DNA of 24,000 nt from Streptomyces sp. 846.5. Lineage in GTDB: Bacteria; Actinomycetota; Actinomycetes; Streptomycetales; Streptomycetaceae. The position numbers and the translations under genes were made by a program. This document shows, one piece after another, positions 14,147 through 16,928 of this stretch. Within the stretch, counting starts at the first letter, position 1. Each line of letters begins with the position of its first letter. The notes below the pieces were generated by a model, which ran no database searches, was not told the origin of the DNA, and saw nothing but the letters and a program-made list of their open reading frames with translations. Where the stretch lies: the NCBI GenBank assembly GCA_004365705.1, contig SOBN01000001.1, positions 1,542,555 to 1,566,554 of the forward strand, in the 5' to 3' direction.

Positions 14147-14164
14147 GGCCAGTTCGGCTATGCA

Positions 14165-14485
14165 CTACAGCTTCATCGCCACGATGTAGTCCACCGCCGC
14201 GTCCAACGCGGTCGCCAACAGCGTGCAGCCCTGGTTCAGCTCGGACATATGACTCTGCGACAGATGCGCCCACTTGGACACCAGCAGTTCGTACGAGTTG
14301 GCCTGGTATGCCTCCCCCATCGCCTTGAGCGTGGCGGTCGCACCTTGGTGGGTGTCGTCGATCGCCGCCGCGAAGTCACGCACATGGGTGGCGAACTCCC
14401 GTACCGAGTCCTCGTTCACCTGCGGCCACTTGACCCCGATGACCTGAAGGAACGTCACCACCGGTCCCGGCAGCTCTATCGCCAT
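14165..14485 (-). CDS. WXG100-like N-terminal (T7SS-type trafficking) domain of a polymorphic toxin, ended by an in-frame TAG
   Basis: MAIELPGPVVTFLQVIGVKWPQVNEDSVREFATHVRDFAAAIDD...AMGEAYQANSYELLVSKW has the W-P-x-x-x-E-D ... x-G-E-x-Y helix-turn-helix pattern seen at N-termini of actinobacterial CpnT-like/WXG100-like toxins. A G-rich RBS (GGGGTGGGG) precedes ATG 14485. Confidence 0.65.
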   Translation of the reverse strand: MAIELPGPVVTFLQVIGVKWPQVNEDSVREFATHVRDFAAAIDDTHQGATATLKAMGEAYQANSYELLVSKWAHLSQSHMSELNQGCTLLATALDAAVDYIVAMKL

Positions 14486-14546
14486 GCCCCACCCCTGCCG
14501 AACACATGTACTGACAAGAATAGTCGTACTGCGCTCGCGCCACGTA

Positions 14547-14578
14547 TGTCAGGGCAGCGACGATCTGTCAGGGCAGCG
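14547..14578. repeat. 13-nt direct repeat TGTCAGGGCAGCG x2 (6-nt spacer) at the GH65 stop codon / island boundary
   Basis: Read directly: tgtcagggcagcg at 14547-14559 and again at 14566-14578, separated by acgatc. The second copy contains the GH65 stop (tca, 14568-14570). Confidence 0.95.
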
Positions 14579-16928
14579 GCCCCAGGCGGCGCTTCAAGGG
14601 CTCGCGGCCCTTGGGCGGGGACGTGTCCGGGAGGTGGGGCAGGGGGTGCAGGTCGCAGGTGACCGGCTTGTCAGTGGTGATGGTGATGGGTTCGCCGCAG
14701 TGGTAGAGGTCCAGTGGGGGGCCGGAGGCCAGGGTGTAGTCGGCGCCGGACGGGGTGATCTCCACCTGGAGCCTGCGGCCGCGGAACTGGAGCCGGAACG
14801 CCAGCCGGGTGAGCCGTTGCGGGAGGCTGGGCGCGAAGGCCAGGTGGTTGCCGCGCAGGCGCATTCCGCCGAGGCCGGCGACCAGCGCCGTCCAGGTGCC
14901 GGCCAGGGAGGCGATGTGCAGGCCGTCGCTGGTGTTGTTCTCCAGGTCGTTCAGGTCCATCAGGGCGGCCTCGCCCAGGTAGTCGTAGGCCAGCTCCAAG
15001 TGGCCGACCTCGGCGGCCATCACCGCCTGGCAGTAGGCGGAGAGCGACGAGTCACGGACCGTCAGCTGCTCGTAGTAGGCGAAGTTGCGTGCCTTCTGGC
15101 CCGGGTCGAAGGCCTCGCCGCGCAGGTACATCGCCAGCACCAGGTCCGCCTGCTTGATCACCTGCTTGCGGTACAGGTCGAAGTAGGGGAAGTGCAGCAG
15201 CAGCGGGTACTGCTCCGGGTCGGTGTGCTCGAAGTCCCAGGCCTGGTGCCCGGTGAAGTCGGCCGACTGCTCGTGCACGTCGAGGTCGTGGTTGTACGGG
15301 AGGGCGATGGCCGCCGCCGCGTCGCGCCAGACCGCGGTCTCCTCGTCGTCCACGCCGAGGGCGTGCGCCTGCTCCGGGTGGCGCTCGGCCGCGTCCGCCG
15401 CCGCGCGGAGGTTCGCCTGCGCCATCAGGTTGGTGTAGACGTTGTCGTCGGCGACGGCGCTGTACTCGTCCGGGCCGGTGACCCCGTCGATGTGGAAGGC
15501 GCCGGCGCTGTCGTGGTGGCCCAGCGAGCGCCACAACCGTGCGGTCTCCACCAGCAGCTCCATGCCGACCTCGCGCTCGAAGTCGGGGTCGCCACTGATC
15601 GCGGTGTAGCGGACCACCGCGTCGGCGATGTCGGCGTTGATGTGGAACGCGGCCGTCCCGGCCGGCCAGTAACCGGACCCCTCCTCGCCGTTGATGGTGC
15701 GCCAGGGGAAGGCCGCCCCGGAGAGCCCCAGCAGCCGGGCCCGTTCGCGGGCGGCGCCCAGGGTGGAGTGCCGCCAGCGCAGCGCGTGCGACACCGCGTC
15801 GGGATGGGTGGCCGCGAGCACCGGCAGCACCACCGTCTCGGTGTCCCAGAAGCTGTGCCCGTCGTAGCCCGATCCGGTCAGGCCCTTGGCGCCGAGGGCG
15901 CGCTGCTCGGCCCTGGCCCCGGCCTGGAGCACATGGAACAGCGCGAAACGCACCGCCTGCTGGATCTCCGCGTCGCCCTCGACCTCGACGTCCGCGCGGT
16001 CCCAGAAGTCGTCCAGGTAGTCGCGCTGCTGCCGCAGCAGCTCCTGCCAGCCGGTGCTGCGGGCGCCGGCCATCGCCGCCTCGGCCTGGTCCCGCAGGGC
16101 CGGCAGCGAGCGCTCGGCCGACCAGCCGTAGGCGACGAACTTCTCCAGCCGCAGCCGCTGTCCGGGCTGCACCACCGAGGTGACGAGCAGTCGGCTGACG
16201 TTCTCGCTGGACTCGGCGAAGGTGGTGGTGCCCTCCGGGCCGTCCACCCGGTGGTCCGCAGTGACGGCGATCTTCAGCCCGCTGCGCAGGGTGGAGTGGG
16301 CCAGCGCGAGCCGCGTCCCGGTCGCGTACCCGGCCTCCGGCTGCAGGGTGCGGTCCAGCGCGGCGGCGATCCGGGGGTCGCCCGAGCGGAGCGGCATCTC
16401 CTCGGACGCGACCAGCTCGGACTGCACCACGATCCGCGCCATGCCGTCGATCGGCTCGACCTCGTAGGCGATGGCGGCGACGGCCCGCTGGCTGAAGGAG
16501 ACCAGCCGGGTGGAGCTGACCCTGACGGTGCGTCCGGCCGGCGAGGTCCATTCGCAGCTGCGGCGCAGTACTCCCGCGCGCAGGTCGAGCACCCGCTCGT
16601 GGTTGTGCAGCACGCCGTACCGGAGGTCGAAGGGCTCGTCGTCGACCAGCAGCCTGATGATCTTGCCGTTGGTGACGTTGACGACGGTCTGCCCCGACTC
16701 CGGGTTGCCGTAGCCGGCCTCGGCGTAGGGCATGGGGTGCAGCTCGTGGAAGCCGTTGAGGTAGCTCCCCGGCAGTCCGTTGGGCTCACCCTCGTCCAGG
16801 TTGCCGCGCCAGCCGATGTGGCCGTTGGAGAGCGCGAACAGCGATTCGCTCTGGGCCAGCATGTCCAGGTCGAGCTCGGTCTCGCGCAGCGTCCAGGGGT
16901 CGACGGTGTATGCGGGGTGGGGAATCAT
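14568..16928 (-). CDS. Glycoside hydrolase family 65 protein (kojibiose/trehalose/maltose-type disaccharide phosphorylase)
   Basis: 786 aa. The N-terminus ...DPWTLRETELDLDMLAQSESLFALSNGHIGWRGNLDEGEP... and ...GYDGHSFWDTE... are typical GH65. The start overlaps the stop of the beta-PGM gene (ATGA at 16925-16928). Confidence 0.9.
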   Translation of the reverse strand: MIPHPAYTVDPWTLRETELDLDMLAQSESLFALSNGHIGWRGNLDEGEPNGLPGSYLNGFHELHPMPYAEAGYGNPESGQTVVNVTNGKIIRLLVDDEPFDLRYGVLHNHERVLDLRAGVLRRSCEWTSPAGRTVRVSSTRLVSFSQRAVAAIAYEVEPIDGMARIVVQSELVASEEMPLRSGDPRIAAALDRTLQPEAGYATGTRLALAHSTLRSGLKIAVTADHRVDGPEGTTTFAESSENVSRLLVTSVVQPGQRLRLEKFVAYGWSAERSLPALRDQAEAAMAGARSTGWQELLRQQRDYLDDFWDRADVEVEGDAEIQQAVRFALFHVLQAGARAEQRALGAKGLTGSGYDGHSFWDTETVVLPVLAATHPDAVSHALRWRHSTLGAARERARLLGLSGAAFPWRTINGEEGSGYWPAGTAAFHINADIADAVVRYTAISGDPDFEREVGMELLVETARLWRSLGHHDSAGAFHIDGVTGPDEYSAVADDNVYTNLMAQANLRAAADAAERHPEQAHALGVDDEETAVWRDAAAAIALPYNHDLDVHEQSADFTGHQAWDFEHTDPEQYPLLLHFPYFDLYRKQVIKQADLVLAMYLRGEAFDPGQKARNFAYYEQLTVRDSSLSAYCQAVMAAEVGHLELAYDYLGEAALMDLNDLENNTSDGLHIASLAGTWTALVAGLGGMRLRGNHLAFAPSLPQRLTRLAFRLQFRGRRLQVEITPSGADYTLASGPPLDLYHCGEPITITTDKPVTCDLHPLPHLPDTSPPKGREPLKRRLGPLP

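Follow-up and report, generated by a model that had tools for sequence, protein, structure and literature searches.

A premature stop codon in a WXG100-like helper gene and the probable recent decay of a deaminase toxin locus with retained immunity in Streptomyces sp. 846.5

The in-frame TAG that interrupts a WXG100-like gene of Streptomyces sp. 846.5 is, with a probability of about 80%, a genuine GAG to TAG mutation (Glu107 to stop) in a stand-alone gene of 240 codons, at a toxin locus whose toxin arm has been pseudogenised while the immunity gene was retained. The locus lies on the minus strand of the window, by which we mean the whole 24,000-nucleotide stretch of DNA analysed. A nonsense mutation of this kind, leaving an inactive toxin and a preserved immunity gene, was among the explanations put forward in the first-pass annotation, and it fits the continuous reading frame of the homologues, the GAG codon of the relatives and a second lesion in the toxin gene itself. 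The features of the interrupted gene are the following:

13763..14485, minus strand: 240-aa WXG100-like gene (PF25547, CpnT-N-terminal-like), here a pseudogene; the joined translation is 98% identical to protein P0001, and residues 1-240 align to hundreds of 240-aa proteins
14165..14167, minus strand: premature TAG at codon 107, GAG in relatives, produced by G>T at 14167
13778..14194, minus strand: strain-specific missense changes A98V (14193), G199R (13891) and G236W (13780), polarised with outgroups

Starting at 14485 on the minus strand, the frame runs through DAAVDYIVAMKL to the TAG at 14167-14165, resumes with CIAELAVLAVSF and continues onward to the TGA at 13765-13763. One TAG alone parts the ORFs 14485-14165 and 14146-13763, the two halves joined across it give exactly 240 residues, and a single G>T at 14167 is all that separates the stop from GAG (Glu) at codon 107. 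The claim of the first-pass annotation that a lone TAG interrupts one coding sequence is borne out, since the halves match a conserved 240-aa family end to end and the match to PF25547 (WXG100_2) grows when they are joined: the first ORF (106 aa) alone scores 31.4 bits (cut-off 27, profile 20-109 of 150), and the joined 240 residues score 43.6 bits over profile positions 20-142, above the gathering score and within the family. Its observation that three ORFs share one frame is also correct, the start coordinates 14485, 14146 and 13702 (ORFs 14485-14165, 14146-13763 and 13702-12920) all being 1 mod 3. The third ORF falls in this frame because of a 1-bp insertion at 13698/13699, described below, and is parted from the second by two in-frame stops, the TGA at 13765-13763 and a TAG two codons further on. 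We likewise found no GGAGG-like or other Shine-Dalgarno-like element in the 20 nt upstream (GCATAGCCGAACTGGCC) of the GTG at 14146, as had been noted; this codon lies 18 nt past the TAG, and a start there loses 7 residues.

GenBank splits the gene into two hypothetical proteins, EDD99_1476/TDU03063.1 (106 aa) and EDD99_1475/TDU03062.1 (127 aa). The gene carries a disabling lesion in comparison with intact orthologues, together with further signs of relaxed constraint (the nonsense change plus three missense changes), and EDD99_1476 and EDD99_1475 should be annotated as one pseudogene.

A search with the joined 240 residues returned 744 homologues at E<=1e-3, in Streptacidiphilus, Kitasatospora and Streptomyces, and among the matches listed (120 of the 744) nearly all are 239-247 aa long and nearly all have 100% query coverage. 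In an alignment of 64 homologues, residue 107 is E in 54, D in 4, Q in 3, S in 2 and A in 1, and is a stop in none. The residues altered by the missense changes are similarly constrained: A98 is present in 64/64 homologues, G199 is G in 63/64 and G236 is G in 57/64. The match to canonical WXG100 proteins (PF06013, the ~100-aa EsxA/EsxB type) stays below the cut-off of 27.3, at 22-24.3 bits; W-x-G is absent from the loop at 57-63 between helices 1 and 2, and the intact protein has 240 residues, not ~100.

Proteins homologous to the first 106 residues are either ~240 aa or ~500-600 aa long, and no natural 106-aa protein was found among them; the 7 short matches inspected (105-152 aa) are contig-end fragments, frameshifted copies or copies with internal deletions. 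Homologues ending naturally at the position of the TAG, which had been named as the case that would speak against an interrupted gene, were thus looked for and not found. Broken copies also occur elsewhere in the family (P0152, P0150, P0271 and P0154), with frameshifts after residue ~110 or a deletion joining ~96 to ~205, which suggests that such genes decay often. The matches of 500-600 aa number about 80 and include P0157 and P0160, the two inspected, in which the ~240-aa module is followed by a long, apparently disordered tail rich in Pro, Ser and Ala, with no recognisable toxin domain.

An AlphaFold model built on the nearest intact homologue (pLDDT 78, pTM 0.72) predicts helices at 25-56, 64-129, 132-179, 182-190 and 206-235. 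Residue 107 lies inside the predicted helix 64-129, and the TAG is therefore not at a domain boundary. When the model was compared with the PDB by Foldseek, no hit reached significance; the hits were generic bundles of long helices (BAR domains; PPE41, E=0.24), and for this reason no function is claimed from the fold. The sequence YSALE (Y-x-x-x-E; residues 184-188, window 13922-13936) closes a helix and is followed directly by a disordered loop rich in glycine. Its E188 hardly varies among homologues, the more distant of which have F in place of Y, and the motif resembles the YxxxD/E type VII export motif.

The closest relative of the locus is a soil-metagenome contig (L001) of 2,391 bp, 98% identical throughout its length, which reaches from the last part of the upstream GH65 gene into the beginning of the fourth gene of the cluster and in which both the helper (240 aa) and the deaminase (282 aa) are intact. 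Judged by this identity to an intact copy, the decay of the locus is very recent. The comparison of codons in orthologous loci, which the first-pass annotation had proposed, gave GAG and no stop: the DNA of 6 relatives (L001, L002 and L006-L009) has it, which makes the single G>T a derived change in Streptomyces sp. 846.5. A scan of genome contigs, a set that does not include the source genome, found 4 loci, with GAG in 4/4. In metagenome contigs, an exact-pattern scan for the TAG site gave no match and a protein-based scan found one locus only (L013, 76% identical), so these scans give no environmental indication either way as to whether a TAG allele circulates. The closest relatives of the toxin cluster and of the GH65 genes of Streptomyces sp. 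846.5 are all Streptacidiphilus, and the genus label Streptomyces is probably out of date.

The relatives also revise the picture of the intact locus. The first-pass annotation had taken the stop to split the N-terminal domain of a single-polypeptide toxin from the rest, but in relatives the WXG100-like protein stops at ~240 aa, and the toxin has a gene of its own, translationally coupled to the first and read in a different frame. In L001-L005 and L012 the stop codon of the 240-aa gene overlaps, as ATGA or GTGA, the start of a separate XOO_2897-type deaminase gene (243-294 aa) in another frame, after which comes a SUKH-4 immunity gene; across the relatives, the toxin start is placed either at such an overlap or 10 nt downstream of the helper stop. 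Since the toxin is a separate gene in every relative examined, the TAG does not divide a toxin N-terminal domain from a toxin domain, and the 240-aa protein is a stand-alone companion of modular toxins. In L010 the gene after the 240-aa gene encodes a 1,247-aa RHS toxin, and L011 has the 240-aa gene without a toxin gene. A ~40-aa N-terminal motif, ..AAKK..GL..DF..AYHGILKDTE.GA, is common to the deaminase and RHS toxins (L001:860-, L002:10720-, L003:10720-, L010:5734-), and is a candidate docking helix for the WXG100-like partner.

The toxin gene of Streptomyces sp. 846.5 carries the second lesion, which the first-pass annotation missed:

12920..13766, minus strand: XOO_2897-type deaminase toxin gene (PF14440), frameshifted; its native ATG at 13766 overlaps the upstream TGA (ATGA)
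13698..13701, minus strand: frameshift site at codons 22-23 of the deaminase gene; GGACG-TCACC in L001, GGATGTTCACC here

From the native start at 13766 the deaminase reads MSEIAEVFSGAAKKIGKAVVKD. The lesion consists of one extra T at 13698/13699 together with C>T at 13701; the frame is lost after codon 22, within the N-terminal motif common to the toxins that follow the helper gene. The ATG at 13702, from which the annotated 260-aa ORF starts, is made by the mutation itself, and the annotated 260-aa 'deaminase' is a frameshifted 282-aa gene, 282 aa being the length of the intact L001 orthologue. The gene also carries a 3-bp deletion on the Streptomyces sp. 846.5 branch. Its predicted catalytic part belongs to PF14440 (48.6 bits, cut-off 27, profile 2-99 of 101) and keeps the zinc-binding motifs, HxE as THSE and PCx6C as PCTNSVNC. 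Because this domain is intact behind the ATG at 13702, some intracellular deaminase could still be made and be neutralised by the immunity protein. Two other ideas about this gene were discarded. A programmed +1 frameshift was rejected, there being no slippery sequence and the insertion being absent from all relatives; a self-inflicted deaminase signature (C>T / G>A) was dropped, the strain-specific changes being mixed (G>T, G>C, C>T, C>A, A>T).

To polarise changes by branch, we took L001 for the sister lineage, with L002, L003 and L005 serving as outgroups; the counts were the following:

Window branch, 240-aa gene: 4 N, 1 S
Window branch, deaminase: 4 N, 6 S, with a 1-bp insertion and a 3-bp deletion
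Window branch, SUKH-4 immunity gene: 0 N, 5 S
L001 branch, 240-aa gene: 1 N, 4 S
L001 branch, deaminase: 0 N, 3 S
L001 branch, SUKH-4 immunity gene: 1 N, 3 S

The 4 N changes of the 240-aa gene on the window branch are A98V, E107*, G199R and G236W. The toxin module totals 8 N and 7 S plus 2 indels on the window branch, compared with 1 N and 7 S on the sister branch. Fisher tests of the module gave p=0.051 against the immunity gene; with the sister branch as the contrast p was 0.069, and with every other branch-gene combination pooled it was 0.015. The direction of these small counts, whose significance is only marginal, is consistent with a relaxed toxin arm and a conserved immunity gene. The omega of the toxin module on the window branch is ~0.4, not 1, which indicates that most of the branch probably predates the inactivation.

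Downstream of the toxin gene, the cluster continues with an intact immunity gene and a rearranged fourth gene:

12270..12851, minus strand: SUKH-4 immunity gene, 193 aa, intact (PF14435, 111.9 bits, cut-off 25.5, profile 1-178 of 179)
11461..12273, minus strand: second SUKH-4-domain gene (fourth gene of the cluster), chimeric; homology to relatives stops at 11620, at the HPE motif
11153..11619, minus strand: 467-bp segment with a vapC 3' fragment and an AbrB/MazE-type gene, replacing ~2.9 kb of the Streptacidiphilus relative
L003:12182-13093, L005:2882-3781, L012:7267-8130 and L002:11493-12236: fused form of the fourth gene in relatives

The SUKH-4 gene starts 68 nt past the deaminase stop, and both its PF14435 match and its position after the toxin gene identify it as a SUKH-4 immunity gene. 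In the fourth gene, the tail of ~51-52 codons (11461-11620) is the 3' end of a vapC (PIN) gene, matching VapC26 residues 105-155 with E=3e-5, and the ~2.9 kb replaced carry, in the Streptacidiphilus relative, the terminal part of the fourth gene together with a WD40 and an APH gene. The VapC26 matched by the tail is an M. tuberculosis protein, and the chimera was formed at the rearrangement breakpoint. Directly after the vapC fragment lies an AbrB/MazE-type antitoxin-like gene (75 aa, 11437-11210, minus strand), for which no toxin partner was found before the GGT gene and which is probably a remnant of a former toxin-antitoxin system. In relatives, the fourth gene encodes a SUKH-4 immunity-like domain fused to a short C-terminal deaminase-like half (HPEERLW...PCx6C), an odd architecture that joins immunity and toxin in a single polypeptide. 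A promoter and terminator scan of 11000-14800 gave nothing useful.

The neighbourhood also bears on whether the lesions could be artefacts of a consensus error in sequencing or assembly, such that the strain truly has GAG, perhaps without the extra T, and a functional locus. The strain is represented by one assembly only in the collections searched, the frameshift places a T beside a T, and single-base indels are the commonest consensus error of long reads. The stop, however, is a substitution and not an indel, and the substitution in the deaminase gene adjoins the inserted T. Within 1.57 kb there are two disabling lesions as well as three missense changes, these last at residues that are invariant or nearly so, whereas ~15 kb of neighbouring coding sequence is without such lesions. 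The fourth-gene rearrangement, moreover, is a structural change, which base-calling errors cannot produce. The 15 other genes in the 24 kb that match Pfam do so with essentially full-length coverage where a single domain model spans the protein (GGT 2-510 of 512, all three GH65 domains, LtrA 1-355 of 356, GH36 and others), which means that errors are not scattered over the window and that the lesions are confined to the toxin module. On balance, we regard a consensus error as unlikely.

A genuine stop could in principle be read through at a low level, in a programmed or tolerated manner or by a suppressor tRNA, limiting the amount of full-length 240-aa protein, as the first-pass annotation had also considered. 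The frame past the TAG is open and conserved up to the normal stop, and the mutation is recent enough for the remainder of the gene to match that of intact relatives at 98% identity. None of the further evidence supports readthrough: the stop is not conserved (0/64 aligned homologues and 0/6 relatives' DNA), the downstream RNA is no more structured than shuffled sequences (z=-1.2; 24 of 200 shuffles fold as well), and the window contains no tRNA gene. The TAG is followed by U, a context in which bacterial ribosomes tend to terminate efficiently. In addition, the toxin to be served is itself frameshifted, and the additional missense changes, at invariant sites, speak against a maintained function. 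We therefore hold readthrough to be very improbable.

That the two halves are made separately (106 aa, and 127 aa from the GTG at 14146) and reassemble as a working split protein is scarcely credible, for although this GTG is near enough to the stop for termination-reinitiation in principle and PGAP calls both ORFs, it has no Shine-Dalgarno sequence, the break lies inside one predicted helix and interrupts the Pfam domain, no natural two-gene version occurs among the homologues, 7 residues are lost, and the downstream toxin is broken too. A related idea, that leaky termination or re-initiation at GTG 14146 yields a trickle of functional helper and that the stop acts as a throttle on toxin export, seems to us highly implausible.

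We thus return to the genuine nonsense mutation with loss of the toxin arm. In relatives, the 240-aa gene lies directly upstream of a polymorphic toxin gene and is translationally coupled to it, and its product would serve the toxin, by analogy with CpnT/EsxEF and with the LXG/Lap systems, as a type VII secretion partner or targeting factor, the tie between this gene and the toxins downstream (deaminase or RHS) being one of genetic linkage only. In Streptomyces sp. 846.5, the helper is cut short midway along its long second helix, a +1 frameshift destroys the conserved N-terminal module of the deaminase, the rearrangement truncates the fourth gene, and the SUKH-4 immunity gene alone remains under purifying selection. 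We infer from these lesions that the toxin arm has lost its function; the expected outcome would be a strain that has lost export of the toxin while keeping protection against the same toxin from relatives.

For this window the main weight of the finding is in annotation, together with the view that the strain probably no longer deploys the toxin yet stays immune to it. A by-product is the recognition that in relatives a conserved WXG100-like protein of 240 aa accompanies modular toxins bearing a common short N-terminal motif, a pairing that is a testable candidate for toxin targeting to type VII secretion in Streptomycetaceae. The intact family may represent a targeting partner for type VII secretion in Actinobacteria, uncharacterised so far, that would recognise the ~40-aa motif of both deaminase and RHS toxins. 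Literature searches found no experimental study of the intact two-gene architecture, nor experimental work on the 240-aa family in Streptomycetaceae.

Among known systems, the family assignment leads to CpnT, since Pfam WXG100_2 is named after a CpnT-like N-terminal domain; in M. tuberculosis, CpnT partners with EsxE-EsxF. The similarity lies in the PF25547 match above threshold and in a helical WXG100-like module linked to a toxin and an immunity factor. In CpnT, however, the domain is fused to the toxin, whereas here it is a free 240-aa protein, for which an outer-membrane channel role cannot be inferred from CpnT.

A decayed toxin accompanied by a kept immunity gene is a familiar state, already known as part of the expected life cycle of polymorphic toxin loci, and leaves the general picture unchanged. 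Zhang et al. 2012 (PMC3482391) catalogued actinobacterial polymorphic toxin loci that carry WXG-type trafficking domains. The present locus resembles those with orphan immunity in having a toxin gene followed by an immunity gene and further immunity-like genes, in an inactive toxin arm beside conserved immunity, and in a content that varies among close relatives (PMC3482391). It differs in that the first lesion is in a separate helper gene and not in the toxin alone, and in that the decay appears very recent. XOO_2897-clade deaminases were described by Iyer et al. 2011 (PMC3239186), who list export by the T7SS and SUKH4 immunity for them. The deaminase and immunity genes agree with that clade in their matches to PF14440 (48.6 bits) and PF14435 (111.9 bits) and in the presence of HxE and PCx6C. 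In contrast to that clade, the deaminase here is without a WXG domain of its own and has instead a short conserved N-terminal helix motif, the WXG100-like domain being carried by a separate upstream protein.

The arrangement recalls the LXG/Lap systems of Bacillota type VIIb secretion, in which small helical proteins are encoded immediately upstream of a modular toxin, and for which it has been proposed that the Lap proteins join the toxin N-terminus in a helical complex for type VII export (PMC10801868). Pfam searches gave no match to an LXG or Lap family, and the phylum and the secretion subtype differ. The helper-toxin interaction proposed here would follow by analogy from the Lap proteins, and the LXG/Lap pair offers a working model of how the intact Streptomycetaceae system may operate.
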